A DNA stretch of 17,836 nucleotides from a virus (taxonomy: Duplodnaviria; Heunggongvirae; Uroviricota; Caudoviricetes): the IMG/VR virus record IMGVR_UViG_2554235189_000012, positions 1-17,836 of that record, one strand, 5' to 3'. The notes under the pieces were generated by a model. That model was not told where the DNA came from. It ran no database searches and saw only the letters and a program-made list of their open reading frames with translations. Below, piece by piece: positions 5,331 to 12,121 of the stretch (positions are counted from its first letter, which is position 1; the number at the start of each line of letters is the position of its first letter). The position numbers and the translations under genes are program-made.

Positions 5331-5872
5331 GGTTCCACCTTCTCTATTTGCTTAAGACCGTCTCTCACTGCATTAAGTACGCGTTCCAGATACTGGTATT
5401 TCGGGTTTGGTGCCGTTGGCCAGTCGGCATACCACGGATCATCACCAAAGAGATTCAGCAGTTTGTTACCGACACCGAAACAACAGCAGCTTTCTTTTAC
5501 GTCATCGGCGTTTTCCGCCTCGTCCCACATTTCGCGAGCCTGTACCGCGTCGATTTCTCTCTCTCTTCGTAAATTTATGATTTCTGACTTCACGAAAAGC
5601 AGATTTGCATCGTTGTCATCGTCGACCGTGCTTCGCAGTTGAGGGTCGAAATAGCCGATTAGATACTCGTTGCTGACCCGCTTAATGAACGTCTGCACAT
5701 CATCACCGCCCATAGCAAACCAAGCCGCAGTCCACGCTTTTCCGTAGCAGGTGATGGTGATTCTTCCCTTACCAGGTTCGTAGTTTTCAATCATCACTCG
5801 AACCGGATCTAGTCGCTCTGCACCGGTTATAACGAATGACAACACATCAATCTTTTCAACCGTTACACTCAC
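5327..5872 (-). CDS. Hypothetical protein (~181 aa, GTG start)
   Basis: The ORF track extends this frame to 6064, but that extension overlaps the Lar-like gene at 5856-6092 in another frame; AGGAGG lies 6 nt upstream of an in-frame GTG at 5872, the start preferred here. Start remains uncertain. Confidence 0.45.
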   Translation of the reverse strand: MSVTVEKIDVLSFVITGAERLDPVRVMIENYEPGKGRITITCYGKAWTAAWFAMGGDDVQTFIKRVSNEYLIGYFDPQLRSTVDDDNDANLLFVKSEIINLRREREIDAVQAREMWDEAENADDVKESCCCFGVGNKLLNLFGDDPWYADWPTAPNPKYQYLERVLNAVRDGLKQIEKVEP

Positions 5873-6092
5873 TGGTTGCCTCCTTTGCTCGCTGATTCCA
5901 CTCTGCTCTAACCTCTGAATAAAAAATCGCGCAGTCATTTCCAGGCGCTGCATATTTGCTACCAGATTGAGCGCGACACGTACCGCATCGAACGAAATAG
6001 AATCGACCGCCAGAGCCATATTCAGGGTGATCTGCTTCGCTGGCAACGTGCGCTGCGCCGCCACAGAATGGACATGGTAGTAGGTTGCTCAT
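5856..6092 (-). CDS. Lar-family restriction-alleviation-like protein, second paralog (78 aa)
   Basis: [16 protein letters not shown]...FYFVRCGTCRAQSGSKYA...AEWNQRA matches the Lar zinc-ribbon pattern; GAGGGAG upstream of ATG at 6092; start overlaps upstream stop (ATGA). Confidence 0.55.
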   Translation of the reverse strand: MSNLLPCPFCGGAAHVASEADHPEYGSGGRFYFVRCGTCRAQSGSKYAAPGNDCAIFYSEVRAEWNQRAKEATSECNG

Positions 6093-7346: not shown

Positions 7347-7829
7347 TTATTTGATAAGAAGTGAAGGTTTCCCAACCTTGAGTTGAGCGCCTGGGATATT
7401 TATTCCTGCTTTTAGTTGGTGCTTGATTGCCAACTTGTCGGCTTTAATTGTCGTTTCAAACTCAACGTATTCAGGAGGAATGGCGCTTGAGTCGATGATT
7501 TCTACAGTTTCTGACGGTTTGCGGATTGTTACCTGGTGAATACCTGCTCGAATCTTTTTCTTGCCAACCATTTCAAGCGATGACGCTATATATGCCATAA
7601 TGCTATCAATCTTATTTTGAATTACTGCTGCTCGTTCATTCAGTGACTTTGCCTCGTCCTTGAGGCGTTCAGCATAACCAGATTCATTTTTAATAATGGC
7701 AAGAAGTTGCTCTATTTTATCGGTAAATTCTCCTTCCATGCCTTCTATTGTGTCAGCAATCATCTCTGGCTCTAAATCTGAATCCATCAGCTTTGCGTAT
7801 TCATTGGCTATTTCATACAGTTTGCTCAC
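7347..7829 (-). CDS. Mu Gam-like / Gp157-like protein (~160 aa)
   Basis: Directly downstream of recT; N-terminal predicted coiled coil and C-terminal G-x-V-x-I-R-x-P pattern resemble Mu Gam / siphovirus Gp157 family proteins; GTG start at 7829 preferred because GGAGG lies 6 nt upstream. Confidence 0.4.
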   Translation of the reverse strand: MSKLYEIANEYAKLMDSDLEPEMIADTIEGMEGEFTDKIEQLLAIIKNESGYAERLKDEAKSLNERAAVIQNKIDSIMAYIASSLEMVGKKKIRAGIHQVTIRKPSETVEIIDSSAIPPEYVEFETTIKADKLAIKHQLKAGINIPGAQLKVGKPSLLIK

Positions 7830-8724
7830 TGGCAACCTCCAGTTTCGCTTTGCATTCTATGTAAATGGCTTGTACGTTCTGCTGCAATTTCATTCCAGAT
7901 GTCAGGCGATATGCTTCTGCAAAATATCGCTTCAAATCATCCATGTTTTCTGCCTGAGCCATTTCATCGCAAAGAAGTTGTGCTTTATCCATTATTTCCT
8001 GCTGGCGTTTCCGTTCATCTTCGCGGATATCTTCCTCTGATTTGTGCGGCATAACTGGTTCAGTCCATACACCTTCTTCTTCGTTTAGTACGTGAATAGC
8101 ACTATCAAGACGTGATGCCTTAGGCCAATACTTGCTTGCACGCTTTACGACCGTCTTTCGCGCCATCTCATTCCAGTGATTTACCCATGGTCCTTTATCG
8201 CTGAATGCCGCCTTGCTTGTTTTCCTTACAGCCTCAATTTCAGCCAGACTCATCTCTTCCGTTAGATAATCACCTGCTGGCGTCTTAACTGTGCAGTAAA
8301 CGCCAACGATATCACCACGATCACCGAAGGCGTTGTATTTATGGGTTGGTGCTTTATCAAGCCCGTTTGACTCATAGGTATCGTTAGCATGAACAAGTTT
8401 TGCCTGACCCCATGAGATAACACCAGACTCCATTGCAATATGGAGCAATCCCATATAACTGATATCAAGGCACACCATGCCGTCGCGCGGAACCAGATAA
8501 GCCAGTTTGCTAGCCGGGTTTAAGGTGATGCCGATCGCCGCAACATTGATGATGGCGTTCTGTGCGCTGGTTGGATTTGCCAGTGCCGTTTTAGCCAGGT
8601 AATCATTTTTCTGGAAATACTGAATTGCAAACTGGCTTTCCTTAGCCCATGTCACCGTCTGTTCAGTCAATGCTCCGCAGAATAACTGCTCCTGCTGTTT
8701 AACGAATTCAACGATATTGCTCAT
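7813..8724 (-). CDS. recT: RecT-family single-strand annealing recombinase
   Basis: 303-aa ORF; motif GPWVNHWNEMARKTVVKRASKYWP closely parallels GPWVTHWEEMAKKTAIRRLFKYLP of E. coli RecT; GGAG RBS; position matches bet of lambda. Confidence 0.8.
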   Translation of the reverse strand: MSNIVEFVKQQEQLFCGALTEQTVTWAKESQFAIQYFQKNDYLAKTALANPTSAQNAIINVAAIGITLNPASKLAYLVPRDGMVCLDISYMGLLHIAMESGVISWGQAKLVHANDTYESNGLDKAPTHKYNAFGDRGDIVGVYCTVKTPAGDYLTEEMSLAEIEAVRKTSKAAFSDKGPWVNHWNEMARKTVVKRASKYWPKASRLDSAIHVLNEEEGVWTEPVMPHKSEEDIREDERKRQQEIMDKAQLLCDEMAQAENMDDLKRYFAEAYRLTSGMKLQQNVQAIYIECKAKLEVASEQTV

Positions 8725-9266: not shown

Positions 9267-9376
9267 AATAAGACCTCAACTCTTTTCCATCCGTCACGTA
9301 ATTTACGGGTGATTCGTTCAAGTAAAGATTCGGAAGGGCAGCCAGCAACAGGCCACCCTGCAATGGCATATTGCAT
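9251..9376 (-). CDS. cIII: CIII-like regulator (inhibitor of FtsH-mediated CII degradation)
   Basis: MQYAIAGWPVAGCPSESLLERITRKLRDGWKR matches the lambda CIII N-terminal region as I recall it; AAGGAG RBS; the ORF-track entry 9251-9478 includes a non-coding upstream extension. Confidence 0.8.
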   Translation of the reverse strand: MQYAIAGWPVAGCPSESLLERITRKLRDGWKRVEVLLCAMK

Positions 9377-9436
9377 GGTGTGCTCCTTATTTATACATAA
9401 CGAAAAACGCCTCTCGTGAAGCGTTATTGGTATGCA

Positions 9437-9463
9437 TATAAAAAGGCCCTCACACTGGAGGGC
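9437..9463 (-). terminator. Intrinsic terminator on minus strand (stem GCCCTC/GAGGGC, 6-nt loop, then CTTTTTAT) upstream of cIII
   Basis: GC-rich 6-bp hairpin followed by a U-run on the minus strand; analogous in position to a tL terminator that would need N antitermination for read-through. Confidence 0.55.
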
Positions 9464-9599
9464 AAAGAAGATTTCCAATAATCAGAACAAGTCGGCTCCT
9501 GTTTAGTTACGAGCGACATTGCTCCGTGTATTCACTCGTTGGAATGAATACACAGTGCAGTGTTTATTCTGTTGTTTATGCCAAAAATAAAGGCCACTA

Positions 9600-9851
9600 T
9601 CAGGCAGCTTTGTTGTAAATGTTGCAGGTATCAAGTAAGTAATTAGATGGAGCGCCATAAATTATGAATTCATCGTTTGTCTGGTCCATCTCCATCTCTT
9701 GGCCTATTGCCATTCTTGCGTCAGTGTCATCAGCGGCGAAGCATAAAACAGCCCACGCACCCATTGTTTTAAAAAGAACTGCAATTGGCTGTGGTTTTAC
9801 TGAATTTGCGTTAGCGCGAAAATCACAAATCGCACTTTCATGAAATTCCAT
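9600..9851 (-). CDS. Hypothetical protein (83 aa)
   Basis: ORF MEFHESAICDFRANANSVKPQPIAVLF...; preceded by the conserved 26-nt leader and a GAGGTGA RBS. Confidence 0.5.
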   Translation of the reverse strand: MEFHESAICDFRANANSVKPQPIAVLFKTMGAWAVLCFAADDTDARMAIGQEMEMDQTNDEFIIYGAPSNYLLDTCNIYNKAA

Positions 9852-9858
9852 ATCTCAC

Positions 9859-9884
9859 CTCAAATAATTGGTTTGCTGCCAAAA
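9859..9884 (-). promoter_or_regulatory. Conserved 26-nt 5' leader element, copy 1 (minus strand TTTTGGCAGCAAACCAATTATTTGAG)
   Basis: 25/26 identical to a second copy at 10096-10121; both end 7 nt upstream of an ATG start codon. Confidence 0.4.
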
Positions 9885-9893
9885 GAAAACCGA

Positions 9894-10088
9894 CTATGCG
9901 TCCTGTCGTTTTTCCGACGCTCTATTCATTTCCTGCCAGATGGCAACTACAGCATCTTCAATATTTCTTTCCTTCAGATCCCATAAATCCCACAGGCCTG
10001 GCATCTCATGACCAAGTTCATCTAAAAGTTTTTTTGCTCCAGCCTGAATCACGTTCTCACTCAGTTGAATCTCTGTTGTTGATTTCAT
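9894..10088 (-). CDS. Hypothetical protein (64 aa; alternative start at 10154 would give 86 aa)
   Basis: ATG at 10088 is preceded by GAGAGGA and the conserved leader; the upstream in-frame ATG at 10154 overlaps the previous stop (ATGA) and cannot be excluded. Confidence 0.45.
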   Translation of the reverse strand: MKSTTEIQLSENVIQAGAKKLLDELGHEMPGLWDLWDLKERNIEDAVVAIWQEMNRASEKRQDA

Positions 10089-10095
10089 AATTCCT

Positions 10096-10121
10096 CTCAA
10101 ATAAGTGGTTTGCTGCCAAAA
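10096..10121 (-). promoter_or_regulatory. Conserved 26-nt 5' leader element, copy 2 (minus strand TTTTGGCAGCAAACCACTTATTTGAG)
   Basis: See copy 1 at 9859-9884. Confidence 0.4.
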
Positions 10122-10150
10122 CAATGAACCATCCGGAAATTCCAGATAGT

Positions 10151-10375
10151 TCATAATTCACTCTTCAATACTTCCAACTTACTAATCGCCGATAGATATC
10201 CGCGCTGATAGGGCATCATCATTCCTTCGAGCTTGCCACTTCTTAACTCCTCCCTGAGCAATTGTATTGCTTGATCAATAACCTCTGCCTTAGCGTCCTT
10301 TATGGCTTGCTTGCGGGGCTTTGCTTTCTGCTTTGGCAGATTTCTCAAGCATGATGGAATGTATGTCTGATTCAT
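10151..10375 (-). CDS. Hypothetical basic protein (74 aa) immediately downstream of N
   Basis: ATG 3 nt after the N stop codon, GAGG upstream; Lys/Arg-rich; no family recognised. Confidence 0.5.
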   Translation of the reverse strand: MNQTYIPSCLRNLPKQKAKPRKQAIKDAKAEVIDQAIQLLREELRSGKLEGMMMPYQRGYLSAISKLEVLKSEL

Positions 10376-10378
10376 CAC

Positions 10379-10651
10379 TTACCTCGCTGTCAGTTGTTTT
10401 GATTTCCGGTAGCCTGCCGCGTAAAGAGCTACGTTTGGCAGGCAAATACTTCCACTGCATTCATCTGCCTTCTTGCAGCGAAGGCCTCCGAGTGATGCTG
10501 CTTTATCTGCTCTGACGCAACCAGAGAGCTTTAGCGCAATTTTTCGCGCCAGTCGCTGCTCTTGCATTGCCTGTTCACGTTGAGCCTGTCTGCGTGCTCT
10601 GCGGCGATTTCTGGCGTTATCGTCAGCCAGATATGTAATGACTACTGCCAT
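10379..10651 (-). CDS. N: N-like transcription antitermination protein with arginine-rich motif
   Basis: 90-aa ORF with GGAGG RBS; Arg-rich N-terminus (NARNRRRARRQAQREQ); central and C-terminal segments (ARKIALKLSGCVRADKAASLG..., VALYAAGYRKSKQLTAR) resemble phage 21 and P22 N proteins as recalled; lies downstream of pL/nutL. Confidence 0.75.
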   Translation of the reverse strand: MAVVITYLADDNARNRRRARRQAQREQAMQEQRLARKIALKLSGCVRADKAASLGGLRCKKADECSGSICLPNVALYAAGYRKSKQLTAR

Positions 10652-10758
10652 GTTGACCTCCGATGATTGACTTTGGCGGTGACGCGCCGGGTGCTTATCT
10701 TCCGGTTGCCGTCGTGCAGCTGCACTTCACGTCACCCCAAAGCCAACTACTCTTTGGT

Positions 10759-10799
10759 TCCCGCATTTCGGCGGGACAATCCCATCAATGTTAAAGAGC
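10759..10799 (-). promoter_or_regulatory. nutL-like site: boxA GCTCTTTAAC plus boxB hairpin TCCCGCCGAAATGCGGGA (minus strand)
   Basis: The same boxA and boxB sequences occur on the plus strand between cro and cII (nutR); each lies downstream of its promoter. Confidence 0.55.
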
Positions 10800-10845
10800 C
10801 TGCCAATCTGTTCCGTTTGGCTACCAGCGTCCTGCTGATGGCTAA

Positions 10846-10874
10846 AGAATACTGTAGGTATTTTATTGTGTAAA
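10846..10874 (-). promoter_or_regulatory. Candidate pL promoter (-35 TTTACA, 17-nt spacer, -10 TATTCT) overlapping operators
   Basis: Hexamers read on the minus strand overlap two AATAC-N5-GTATT operators; the same -10 hexamer and operator arrangement occur at pR. Confidence 0.4.
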
Positions 10875-10932
10875 TACCCAAGGTATTTATTTTTGATGAA
10901 ATAATGATAAGCAAATGAATACAAAGGATATT
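10848..10932. promoter_or_regulatory. oL operator region: three AATAC-N5-GTATT-type sites (10848-10862, 10873-10887, 10918-10932)
   Basis: AATACTGTAGGTATT, AATACCCAAGGTATT (part of a perfect 17-bp palindrome AAATACCCAAGGTATTT), AATACAAAGGATATT; same half-site as the oR sites. Confidence 0.55.
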
Positions 10933-11018
10933 TATTTTTTCGGTGTCTGCTTGTTCAGTGCTTTTTATGCGGGATATGTGAAGTGGATCCCGATAGCTAT
11001 TGCTGCCGGGATTATAGG

Positions 11019-11387
11019 TTAGTCAGCGAAGGTTAAGACGAGAATTACCTTAATGATGTCTGCTACAACAGACACGGCCATAGATAAACCAAAGACGATC
11101 CAAGCCACAGTGATGTCTTCACTACCATCGTATAGAGTTCCGTAATCACTGGTGTAAGGCGTAAATGTCGCGCCTTGATACAATAGGTATAAGCTTGATC
11201 CATAGAGGATAAATGCAGATATCCCTTGTATTGCTATGATCACCAGAATCATGAAACGAGCTGATCTATGCGCCCAAGCCTGGCTTATTTTTTCTGATAG
11301 AGATTTCGCAATAAAAGTATGCGCTAAGCCGTAAATTGTCGAGATTGCCAACATCCCAAAAAAGCTTGCTATAGCGGTTCCAACCAT
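11019..11387 (-). CDS. Small integral membrane protein (~122 aa, three predicted TM helices) downstream of cI
   Basis: ORF begins 18 nt after the cI stop with AAGGGG upstream of ATG at 11387 (the ORF track starts it at a TTG inside the cI stop); three hydrophobic segments; occupies the position of rexAB in lambda. Confidence 0.6.
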   Translation of the reverse strand: MVGTAIASFFGMLAISTIYGLAHTFIAKSLSEKISQAWAHRSARFMILVIIAIQGISAFILYGSSLYLLYQGATFTPYTSDYGTLYDGSEDITVAWIVFGLSMAVSVVADIIKVILVLTFAD

Positions 11388-11404
11388 AATCGCCCCTTGC
11401 GTGA

Positions 11405-12121
11405 TCAAACCAGCCTTAGTTTTGTCTCAATTGCAACGCCTATAATCTTGCAGTTTCCATTGATTGGCACGAGAGGCCATGCAGGATTAAGTCCCTTGAG
11501 GTATTTATTTCCGCCGTCGATTATCAGCTTCTTGAATGTTGCTTCGTTAGAGTCAGAAAGTTTTGCTATGACCAAGCTGCCGTTGATCGCCTCCCTTCCG
11601 GTATCGAAAAGAACGAATGTTCCCTCTGGAATACTTAACCCAACCGGTGCCGTCATTGAATCACCTTCCACTTTAAGCCAGAACGCATTACCTTGAATAT
11701 GCGCGTCAGACTCAAGCCAAACATCTATGTCTTTAATGGTGTATGGTTCGCATGCTTCACACCACGAGCCAGCCTGGATACTGCTTAACACCGGATACCT
11801 CTTTCCTGCTCTGTATTCCCCTGCATACCTTACGTTGGCATCGCTCTTAAGGCTTTCTGCCTGTTCTGCAACCTTGGCAGCAATTGACTGGCTAAAATCA
11901 GCAATTGAGACTTGCAACAAACGTGCAAAACCAGATGCGACCTCAACGTTTAGCGCGTTTCTGCCATTAAGATAATGCCCTACCGCTCCTTGGGTGATAC
12001 CCAGTTCATCAGCGATTGAGTATTGGGTTATTCCCAATTCTTTCTTTTTTGACTCATACAAAGCCTTAAGCCGCTTAGCGTCTTCGAGCTGTTCTGTCGT
12101 CAGTGATTTTTTATTTTCCAT
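11405..12121 (-). CDS. cI: CI-type prophage repressor (HTH_XRE N-terminal domain plus LexA/S24-like C-terminal domain)
   Basis: 238-aa ORF; N-terminus TEQLEDAKRLKALYESKKKELGITQYSIADELG parallels lambda CI; C-terminal FWLKVEGDSMTAP matches the S24 autocleavage domain; divergent from cro with operators between. Confidence 0.9.
   Translation of the reverse strand: MENKKSLTTEQLEDAKRLKALYESKKKELGITQYSIADELGITQGAVGHYLNGRNALNVEVASGFARLLQVSIADFSQSIAAKVAEQAESLKSDANVRYAGEYRAGKRYPVLSSIQAGSWCEACEPYTIKDIDVWLESDAHIQGNAFWLKVEGDSMTAPVGLSIPEGTFVLFDTGREAINGSLVIAKLSDSNEATFKKLIIDGGNKYLKGLNPAWPLVPINGNCKIIGVAIETKLRLV

Follow-up and report, generated by a model that had tools for sequence, protein, structure and literature searches.

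The idea of modular evolution is reportedly that of Susskind and Botstein, and "boundary sequences" of the immunity region are said to have been described by Degnan et al. in 2007. A "boundary sequence 4" is annotated in the GenBank entries EF120458 and EF120460; for lambdoid phages, the term was not found in the literature searched. A passage of PMC2327257 that cites Clark et al. (2001) on phage HK620 describes short conserved linkers at lambdoid module boundaries. We describe here a 26-nt element that occurs twice in the pL region of a phage genome and estimate, with a probability of about 0.8, that it is a lambdoid mosaic-joint sequence, acting both as a portable translation-start region and as a short-homology recombination linker. 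Like the lambdoid linkers, the element spans a few tens of nucleotides at a gene boundary, is found in many phages and joins non-homologous modules in many combinations. In contrast to them, its origin can be named: one allele of N contributed the 3' end of its coding sequence, and the next gene its Shine-Dalgarno sequence. Boundary sequence 4 belongs to the same phage group and operon. It follows on the pL transcript after a further 300 bp or so, where the module of an 83-aa gene ends, whereas the element lies at the N side of this module and is not annotated as a boundary sequence in either entry.

The window, by which we mean the whole stretch of DNA analysed (17,836 nucleotides), was described in the initial annotation as carrying in a pL operon a 26-nt element repeated on the minus strand 237 bp apart, each copy ending 7 nt before the start codon of a small gene (83 aa and 64 aa) with dissimilar products. 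These observations were borne out. The pattern TTTTGGCAGCAAACCAMTTATTTGAG has two exact matches in the window, at 9859-9884 and 10096-10121, both on the minus strand, and none of 200 dinucleotide-preserving shuffles contained a match, even at up to 3 mismatches. The 83-aa and 64-aa products gave no BLASTP alignment at E<=100, and a cI-like repressor, an N-family antiterminator and RecT are all encoded on the minus strand. The two copies differ by a single mismatch, and in a repeat search their similarity reaches over 43 nt (84% identity; 9845-9887 against 10082-10124). The features of the region are the following.

11405-12121, minus strand: cI-like repressor
10379-10651, minus strand: N antiterminator, mosaic (Pfam PF25694, N_peptide; phrog_271)
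10151-10378, minus strand: 75-aa gene of unknown function between N and copy 1 (phrog_5305)
10124-10154, minus strand: 14-bp hairpin ATGAACTATCTGGA/TCCGGATGGTTCAT followed by TTGTTTTGG, from the terminator scan; overlaps the ATG at 10154
10096-10121, minus strand: copy 1 of the 26-mer, TTTTGGCAGCAAACCACTTATTTGAG; core at 10096-10117, a relic of the N 3' end
9894-10088, minus strand: 64-aa cassette gene, very rare, between the two copies
9885-9911, minus strand: 3' end of the 64-aa cassette, GGACGCATAGTCGGTTTTC and then TTTTGG; supplies the TTTT of copy 2
9859-9884, minus strand: copy 2 of the 26-mer, TTTTGGCAGCAAACCAATTATTTGAG; core at 9859-9880
9855-9861, minus strand: Shine-Dalgarno sequence GAGGTGA of the 83-aa gene, read from the sequence; contains the TGA used as N stop in phages with a coding core
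9600-9851, minus strand: 83-aa cassette gene of unknown function (phrog_2471)
9560-9614, minus strand: shared 3' boundary of the 83-aa cassette, AACAAAGCTGCCTGATAGTGGCCTTTATTTTTGGCATAAACAACAGAATAAACAC, with a terminator-like stem at 9593-9608 and a T-tract
7813-8724, minus strand: RecT

In many relatives, the 22-nt core, GGCAGCAAACCA(C/A)TTATTTGA, forms the final seven codons (G-S-K-P-L-I-stop) of N genes of full length. N reading frames that end in the core carry arginine-rich N-termini of the lambda, 21 or P22 type, and phmmer matches such a protein to lambda N of the solved antitermination complex (6GOV chain N) with E = 2.4e-57, the alignment reaching the last residue (GSKPLI against KSIPLI). 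Lambda N ends in GKSIPLI and a stop, homologous to what the motif encodes. Over residues 1-64, the N protein of the window is 95% identical to an N of the phage-21 type with the motif at its end, and continues after residue 64 with another type of C-terminus, ending in YRKSKQLTAR (CLPNVALYAAGYRKSKQLTAR followed by the stop). It terminates 258 nt upstream of copy 1, and the core is neither in frame with it nor terminates it. Since the window N has this alternative C-terminus, both copies are out-of-frame, non-coding relics; the GSKPLI frame is open for just 18 codons at copy 1 and 22 codons at copy 2, so that copy 1 is not part of N.

The core shares its TGA with GAGGTGA, the Shine-Dalgarno sequence of the gene that follows; where the core is coding, the N stop lies inside this Shine-Dalgarno sequence, 8 nt before the following ATG. 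Phages with a coding core therefore show the classic geometry of junctions in which stop and Shine-Dalgarno sequence overlap for translational coupling. Unlike at such junctions, no long reading frame ends at either copy in the window, and for this reason the 83-aa and 64-aa genes would have to rely on direct initiation. Behind copy 2, GTGAGAT leads to the ATG at 9851, which gives GAGGTGA, 3 nt and ATG; behind copy 1, a variant spacer, AGGAATT, leads to the ATG at 10088, and the Shine-Dalgarno sequence is GAGAGGA. GAGGTGA(T) can pair with 7-8 nt at the 3' end of 16S rRNA. If a translation-initiation region is defined by a purine-rich, 16S-complementary stretch 4-9 nt before an ATG supported by comparison, both copies qualify as putative ribosome-binding sites. 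Lambda itself has a decayed copy of the element, GCAATCCACTATTTAAGGTGATATATG, in front of orf28, and the tail behind lambda ral equals the terminator-like tail behind the 83-aa gene of the window; this boundary (9560-9614) is near-identical in lambda and is also present at two further loci of our comparison. The lambda relic differs from those of the window in that the sieB region lies between it and N and in that it has suffered a 1-nt deletion and several substitutions. Lambda also lacks the 75-, 64- and 83-aa genes.

The element is widespread. A 46-mer search recovered it in 307 phage records, and the exact 22-mer is found in more than 120 viral contigs. Eight upstream contexts are combined with about 12 unrelated downstream genes in 38 combinations (about 260 loci), and of 204 occurrences, 177 have the ATG at a distance of 7 nt from the end of the core. 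In an alignment, homology is limited to about 35 columns. The 75-aa gene of the window is one of the upstream contexts (context B) and is common to the phages JEP4, ECP1 and phi296. JEP4 carries the 75-aa gene, a single copy and the 83-aa gene, and at 98.7% identity it lacks exactly the 237-bp unit. Its copy is a hybrid with the left variant of copy 1 and the right end of copy 2, which is consistent with, though short of proving, a crossover inside the element. ECP1 and phi296 have a JEP4-like single copy followed by lambda orf28-ral. In E. coli Z0117EC0117 the order is N, copy, 64-aa gene, copy, orf28-ral, and thus the 64-aa cassette retains its trailing copy in a second, independent context, next to other neighbours on either side. 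Two full copies are also found at the loci L254 and L248, and one full and one truncated copy at five others. Elsewhere, the 83-aa gene has N itself, an N relic or the 75-aa gene as its immediate upstream neighbour. The 64-aa protein is far rarer, with 5 protein clusters only among 5.8 billion sequences; a search of viral contigs gave no match to the start of its gene, and Pfam has no family for the 64-, 75- or 83-aa proteins. At locus L266, a homologue of the 64-aa gene stands behind N of the other type, between directly repeated copies of the stop/Shine-Dalgarno junction of that N, ACAGCGAGGTAGTYATG, and judged from this arrangement shows the same process at a different junction sequence.

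Conservation across many phages, a position at gene boundaries with non-homologous flanks, and modules that are reassorted around it are the properties of a linker or boundary sequence. Of the possibilities raised in the initial annotation, a recombination linker marking a mosaic joint is therefore well supported, given the many partners and relatives that differ by exactly the inter-copy unit; recurrence before different genes was found in about 300 records, so that absence of the motif from related phages no longer speaks against it. Module exchange via short conserved flanking sequences is a mechanism described in the literature (in the passage of PMC2327257 citing Clark et al., 2001). As a mosaic joint, the element would be composed of three parts. 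The first four T's would be contributed by the cassette in front, whose terminator-like end has a T-tract. The core would derive from the end of a common N allele (seven codons and stop, G-S-K-P-L-I-TGA), and the stop would overlap a GAGGTGA placed 3 nt before the ATG of whichever gene comes next. The 3' part, read from the sequence, would serve as ribosome-binding site of the downstream cassette gene. The comparative pattern suggests that the whole 26-43 nt form the homology shared by co-infecting phages or prophages, through which small early genes near N could be swapped, inserted or deleted while the translation start stays working. The two copies in the window may then reflect the presence of an extra, rare 64-aa cassette with its own trailing copy between the 75-aa and 83-aa genes, either by insertion of this cassette here or by its deletion in JEP4, and a crossover between the two copies would yield the single-copy arrangement of JEP4. 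The 5' two-thirds of the element probably have no regulatory function of their own.

The TTTT of copy 1 is the T-tract of the hairpin directly upstream (10124-10154), which folds with -20.8 kcal/mol (z = -4.99; 0 of 200 shuffles equally stable) and appears terminator-like, with a stable stem and a T-rich tract, although just 5 of the 14 stem pairs are G-C. At copy 2, the segment 9885-9911 is a decayed version of the terminator tail that closes ral-type cassettes, as seen at L248 (AAGGCCGCATAGTCGGCCTTTCTTTTTGGCAGC), L263 and L126. The hairpin before the element is strong in context B, clean at L248 and decayed at copy 2. The idea that all non-N contexts have a terminator hairpin in front of the element was considered and rejected, because contexts D and E/F have none. 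In context E, an unrelated Cys-rich reading frame reads through the motif.

A shared regulatory site, that is an operator, a target of an sRNA or protein, or a processing site, had been proposed in the initial annotation on the grounds that non-coding sequence is conserved before two different genes. Conserved and non-coding holds for the relics in the window, but not for the many phages in which the same sequence is the coding 3' end of N, and this coding status alone explains where the core comes from. An identical sequence that adjoins the ribosome-binding site of unrelated genes and is widely conserved could still point to a dedicated cis-regulatory RNA site, such as an operator, an sRNA target or an RNase site. 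The structure prediction that had been suggested gave no significant fold at either leader (z = -0.65 and +1.48 relative to shuffles, the latter for copy 1, which is less structured than its shuffles). Rfam at E<=1 over 9300-11000 returned nothing at the motif and only a cIII thermoregulator elsewhere. No antisense or sRNA partner with more than 11 complementary nt was found within the window, and complementary 8- to 11-mers were at chance level in a search space of 36 kb, where a handful of 10-mers is about the chance expectation. On the transcribed strand, the promoter scan found no promoter-like site in the motif, and in the region as a whole 3 sites against 2.9 expected from shuffles. Diversity in the relic core (0.014-0.077, MAFFT alignments) shows no consistent excess of purifying selection over the synonymous sites of its neighbours (third-codon positions, 0.026-0.104), a comparison of few, closely related sequences that has opposite signs in two gene sets and is compatible with weak constraint. 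The downstream genes also do without the element. The 83-aa gene and orf28 are found directly behind N alleles ending with GGCAAATCGATTCCGTTAATTTGA or CCAGCTTATTACGATTGA, with only TGAGGTGAKATATG in common, the 64-aa homologue at L266 uses ACAGCGAGGTAGTTATG as its leader, and a truncated version, cactg joined to AATTATTTGAGGTGAGAT, serves another gene. The element thus does not accompany the 83-aa gene, orf28 and the 64-aa family everywhere. Taken together, the only regulatory support is the trivial one of a strong Shine-Dalgarno sequence at its 3' end, and we regard a dedicated regulatory site as very unlikely. The same observations bear on a milder version, in which the whole stretch from -29 to -1 is a selected, portable translation-initiation region whose 5' A/U- and C/A-rich part acts as standby or S1 site or as enhancer, kept because the cassettes need early expression rather than as relic or homology only. 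The upstream reach of the 30S footprint is about -29 to -26, and the left edge of homology clusters at about these positions in the independent-looking contexts B, C, D and E/F/G, falling within about 3 nt in several non-N contexts (about -29 from the ATG); moreover, the leaders are unstructured and their spacing to the ATG is near-invariant. This clustering, however, is also explicable by the resemblance of the N end to the common terminator tail TTTTTGGCATAAACAAC, with which it shares GGCA.AAAC.AC. The different or truncated leaders of the 83-aa gene, orf28, the 64-aa homologue and another gene, the decay of lambda's own copy and a relic-core diversity that is not below that of nearby third-codon positions also argue against it, and we consider it unlikely.

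Copy 1 could also be coding. The reading frame behind it can be read from the ATG at 10154 as well, which was missed in the initial annotation and yields 86 aa with copy 1 inside the gene; in relatives with a single copy, a 20-codon relay frame, MNYLEFPDGSLFWQQTTYLR followed by a stop, would start at the ATGA overlap with the stop of the 75-aa gene, end 4 nt before the next ATG and so hand ribosomes on from the 75-aa gene to the cassette behind it. The sequence does show an ATGA overlap at 10151-10154 and a TGA in frame within GAGGTGA. The 86-aa form has been annotated by gene callers (P0001; L264), phrog_37429 matches its residues 1-28, and copy 2 stands in frame after its TAG. The first 10 codons of this frame, however, form the stem of the -20.8 kcal/mol hairpin (z = -5.0), which would bury the ATG. 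In most contexts the frame is closed or another frame is coding, and the in-frame relation needs nothing beyond the fixed 7- or 10-nt spacers. Since the homologues at L126, L263 and L266 cannot be extended to 86 aa, their sole possible start being the ATG equivalent to 10088, the comparative data favour the 64-aa start, and a coding copy 1 appears improbable. A mini-frame in the long relic, MKLGSKPLI and stop, was likewise discarded: its ATG is ATA or ATT in some phages, as it is in real N alleles, and hence gives no sign of selection. Two direct repeats 237 bp apart, each followed by a small reading frame, might further suggest local tandem duplication of a gene with its leader and later divergence of the gene copies. 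The lack of protein similarity even at BLASTP E<=100, the occurrence of both genes separately in other phages with the same leader and the limitation of the repeat to 43 nt speak against this, and with the two proteins unrelated rather than paralogous, we treat a tandem duplication as refuted. The pattern ascribed to the mosaic joint could also have arisen from illegitimate joins made at random, of which selection retained those with a functional start site.

A more far-reaching form of the mosaic-joint model, which we regard as unlikely, is that the position after N is a dedicated site of cassette capture. The stop/Shine-Dalgarno junction of N, of whichever allele, and the terminator tail (TTTTTGGCATAAAC and following) would act as paired left and right handles, phage single-strand annealing proteins such as the RecT of the window would use them to accumulate and exchange small immediate-early genes, for example ral, and each capture would duplicate the junction. 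In outcome only, the region resembles an integron cassette array: small, unrelated, promoterless genes under one promoter, each bounded by a repeated junction. Integrons differ in having an integrase and a structured attC site, neither of which is present here. Nothing points to site-specific recombination, the repeats are ordinary homology and the cassettes close with terminator-like hairpins; the region does not belong to the integron family.

As an ordinary mosaic joint, the element does not reveal a new regulatory mechanism. For annotation, the calls of 86-aa and 20-aa reading frames across the motif probably represent artefacts. Where an ATG stands 7-10 nt behind it, the motif is a practical marker for the start of early accessory cassettes. 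Besides ral, orf28 and phrog_2471, these comprise a dozen more without known function, and some may act in anti-restriction or anti-defence. If the capture site were real, the element would flag new early accessory genes, of which the ral-like ones may be anti-defence genes, and the region would be a recombinase-driven cassette array that works without integrase. The locus illustrates concretely, at the level of the sequence, the shuffling of small immediate-early genes among lambdoid phages: a junction of about 30 nt, in origin the N gene end that overlaps the following ribosome-binding site, is carried along as a relic, so that each new gene arrives at a ready-made translation start.

The 26-nt sequence TTTTGGCAGCAAACCA(A/C)TTATTTGAG has exactly two copies in the window. 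Both are on the minus strand, copy 1 at 10096-10121 and copy 2 at 9859-9884, with one base different and a spacing of 237 bp. This repeat is real and non-random: its pattern had no match in 200 dinucleotide-preserving shuffles, even when three mismatches were allowed, and in a repeat search of the window the similarity reaches 43 nt at 84%. The initial annotation had placed the copies ahead of two small genes with unlike products, and both points are confirmed. Copy 1 leads through AGGAATT into the ATG of a 64-aa ORF, copy 2 through GTGAGAT into that of an 83-aa ORF, and pairwise comparison of the two proteins detected no similarity. Gene callers open the ORF that follows copy 1 at an alternative ATG, 10154, which forms an ATGA overlap with the stop of the preceding 75-aa gene; the product would then have 86 aa and copy 1 would be coding. 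We consider it likely (about 80%) that the repeat is a mosaic-joint element, in which an N gene 3'-end relic, the ribosome-binding site of the next gene and the T-tract of the preceding terminator would be combined, and which would be present twice because the window contains one extra cassette. The repeat lies in a leftward early operon of lambdoid type, which runs along the minus strand:

11405-12121, minus strand, cI-like repressor gene
10379-10651, minus strand, N-family antiterminator (Pfam N_peptide, phrog_271)
10151-10378, minus strand, 75-aa gene
9894-10088, minus strand, 64-aa ORF behind copy 1
9600-9851, minus strand, 83-aa ORF behind copy 2
9331-9389, minus strand, cIII thermoregulator RNA (Rfam RF01804, 88.5 bits, E = 8e-22, lambda)
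7813-8724, minus strand, RecT

Several further features were seen in this operon. A 22-nt unit (AATACCCAAGGTATTTATTTTT and variants) is present in three direct copies at 10848-10939, with spacings of 25 and 45 nt, which overlap a promoter-like site, TTTACA-17-TATTCT (10874-10846, minus strand); these probably represent the OL operators and pL for this immunity type. The interval from the repressor gene to the presumed pL contains a 129-aa ORF (11019-11408, minus strand) that appears strongly hydrophobic by eye; in other lambdoid phages this slot holds rex or other prophage-expressed accessory genes. The cIII-like reading frame at 9331-9389 (MQYAIAGWPVAGCPSESLLERITRKLRDGWKR...) seems to stop earlier than lambda cIII. 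Between the 75-aa gene and copy 1, a 14-bp hairpin (10124-10154, minus strand; -20.8 kcal/mol, z = -5.0) is followed by TTGTTTTGG and is a candidate tL1-like terminator that N would need to override. The start codon at 10154 overlaps this hairpin.

The origin of the core, the 22 nt behind the leading TTTT, is found in the N gene. In E. coli Z0117EC0117 the annotated upstream gene ends within the motif (...AAA TTA GGC AGC AAA CCA CTC ATT TGA), and translation of this frame at every occurrence of the element identified the core as the 3' end of full-length N genes, where it encodes G-S-K-P-L-I-stop in the final seven codons. These genes have N-termini of the lambda (MDAQTRRRERRAEKQ...), phage-21 (MTVVITYLADDNARNRRRARRQ...) or P22 type (...GNAKTRRHERRRK...) and a common C-terminus, ...YYRKPRSEMGVTCVGRQKMKLGSKPLI-stop. 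The end of lambda N (...GITCSGRQKIKGKSIPLI-stop) is homologous to this tail, whose alignment with the full-length lambda N of 6GOV, a solved structure of the antitermination complex, continues to the last residue. The core's TGA, 8 nt ahead of the ATG of the next gene, is part of that gene's Shine-Dalgarno sequence, GAGGTGA. A second N class ends ...CLPNVALYAAGYRKSKQLTAR-stop, and the N of the window is a member: over residues 1-64 it shares 95% identity with a motif-ending phage-21-type N, and it carries the alternative C-terminus from ...LRCKKADE on, so that this mosaic gene has a breakpoint between its RNA-binding and C-terminal halves. Phages with the second type retain the 3' end of the other allele as an out-of-frame relic, about 50 nt long in mEp234 and the Stx phages. 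With the 75-aa gene in between, as in the window, JEP4, ECP1 and phi296, the relic measures 22-26 nt. Since the GSKPLI frame is open for only 18 (copy 1) and 22 (copy 2) codons, both window copies are relics outside N. Such a relic has also been co-opted as a coding end by another gene: at one surveyed locus (L127, about 5800-5960, minus strand) an unrelated Cys-rich ORF (...CQLPKCDTTKWSVDDWCNWIDRYGTWWERIYFRGKPLI-stop) runs into the motif, which supplies its final codons and stop. At the sister loci L207 and L181 a 22-nt insertion closes this ORF earlier.

The recurrence ahead of different genes in lambdoid phages that the initial annotation had suggested checking was borne out. The element matches 307 phage records, and the exact 22-mer core is found in more than 120 viral contigs, in one copy each among the matches listed. 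Megablast of the region against phage genomes returns two-piece matches. JEP4 carries the 75-aa gene, a single element copy and the 83-aa gene, with a record span 237 bp shorter than the query span, exactly one unit. ECP1 and phi296 share the 75-aa gene and the single copy with JEP4 but continue with lambda-type orf28 and ral. In mEp234 (lambda immunity) the core GGCAGCAAACCACTTATTTGAGGTGA directly follows N, ahead of the 83-aa gene. Motif-found loci were pooled with loci found by their downstream genes, which avoids selecting for the motif. In this set the element joins eight upstream kinds (intact N end, long N relic, 75-aa gene plus hairpin, 64-aa gene, Cys-rich ORF and three others) to about a dozen unrelated genes in 38 combinations. 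The downstream products begin MEEEFE (orf28), MEFHES (83 aa), MTKSWS, MSSIRL, MEALVV, MEEQAN, MKSTTE (64 aa), MRVKTM, MERKFE, MNMNVS or MDEEVE, with the ATG 7 nt past the core in 177 of 204 cases. When ten representative junctions were aligned, homology was limited to about 35 columns and both flanks were unrelated. The element is missing upstream of some copies of the same genes: in the gene-anchored sample, the 83-aa gene and orf28 also stand directly behind other N alleles, whose ends are homologous at the protein level with different nucleotides (GGC AAA TCG ATT CCG TTA ATT TGA, GKSIPLI-stop; ...GKSIPAYYD-stop). There only TGAGGTGAKATATG is shared, and thus the universal, presumably functional part is the stop/SD overlap, with the 5' two-thirds being one allele's coding end carried along. 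The SD portion presumably drives translation.

The extra cassette is that of the 64-aa gene. Occurrences of this gene are very rare: 5 clusters in 5.8 billion proteins, one of 5,426 complete E. coli genomes, one GTDB representative contig and none in the viral contigs searched. Three other E. coli assemblies repeat the arrangement of the window. The gene is bounded in Z0117EC0117 by an intact motif-ending N and by orf28-ral, and the element stands on either side of it, hence the cassette retains its trailing copy while both neighbours change. At L263 it follows an N ending ...KLSSKPLI-stop, and its 3' flank, TCTTTTGGCA joined to TAAACAACAGAGG, is the tail also present behind ral and the 83-aa gene. 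In the metagenome contig L266 a homologue stands behind the second N type; the motif is absent, and the stop/SD junction of that N, ACAGCGAGGTAGT(T/C)ATG, flanks the gene as a direct repeat of 13 nt. The junction repeats at 44-60 and 236-252 of this contig (ACAGCGAGGTAGTTATG and ACAGCGAGGTAGTCATG) parallel the repeat of the window with a different junction sequence. Two full copies are present at L254 and L248. At five loci (phi296, L022, L101, L114 and L232) a full copy is accompanied by a truncated one, cactg followed by AATTATTTGAGGTGAGAT, after the ral terminator. The truncated copy, at 2123-2140 in phi296, directly follows the terminator tail ahead of the MTKSWS... gene and carries the A variant (CCAATT), as does copy 2 of the window. 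At L248 a clean terminator, AAGGCCG-CATAGT-CGGCCTT, then TCTTTTT, runs straight into GGCAGCAAGCC..., and the 3' end of the window's 64-aa gene is a decayed version of it, GGACGCATAGTCGGTTTTCTTTTGG. The terminator-like ends before both copies identify the leading TTTT as the T-tract of the preceding cassette. The N end TTAGGCAGCAAACCAC matches the common terminator tail, TTTTTGGCATAAACAAC, at GGCA.AAAC.AC, a similarity that may explain why several joins have the same left edge. The single JEP4 copy combines the left variant of copy 1 (CCACTT) with the right end of copy 2 (GTGAGAT), as expected for the product of a crossover between the two window copies. The cassette may have been inserted in the window or deleted in JEP4, and recombination presumably uses the element as homology.

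A shared regulatory site or a recombination linker at a mosaic joint had been proposed in the initial annotation. The linker part agrees with the reassorting flanks and the one-unit indel, and the regulatory part found no support in structure, Rfam matches or pairing partners. Both leaders fold no better than shuffled sequence (z = -0.65 and +1.48), Rfam returned nothing at the motif even at E<=1, and complementary partners within the window were limited to chance-level 8-11-mers. In the promoter scan the motif contained no promoter-like site for the transcribed strand, and the whole region had three sites against 2.9 expected from shuffles. The description as conserved non-coding sequence holds for the relics in the window and fails in many phages, where the element is the coding N 3' end. 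Where the core is a non-coding relic, its nucleotide diversity (0.014-0.077) is comparable to that of the adjacent genes' third-codon positions (0.026-0.104); in N-coding contexts its diversity of 0.011-0.021 was called within range of the neighbouring genes' third positions (0.023-0.085). The conservation therefore probably reflects the youth of these modules rather than extra constraint. The one observation leaving room for function is that the left edge of homology clusters near -29.

Short conserved sequences flanking exchangeable modules are an established idea for lambdoid phages, which Martinsohn et al. 2008 (PMC2327257), citing Clark et al. 2001, set against illegitimate recombination (Juhala et al. 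2000; Hendrix 2003). For this operon, 'boundary sequences' are marked in the GenBank records from Degnan et al. 2007. The present element is not among them; 'boundary sequence 4' marks the distal end of the 83-aa module, about 300 bp beyond copy 2 in the direction of pL transcription. A 22-nt inverted repeat (9516-9537 and 9542-9563) adjoins the 83-aa 3' end at that position. The last codons of the 83-aa gene (...NKAA-stop), a terminator-like stem with T-tract and TTTTTGGCATAAACAACAGAATAAACAC (9560-9614, minus strand) have a nearly identical counterpart behind lambda ral (...NKAA-stop), so that unrelated cassettes have their 3' end in common besides their 5' end. In lambda itself, the N tail is homologous and the element ahead of orf28 is decayed (GCAATCCACTATTTAAGGTGATATATG). 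Rather than a new mechanism, the repeat offers a clear case of phage mosaicism, resolved in detail, and can serve as a marker in annotation.
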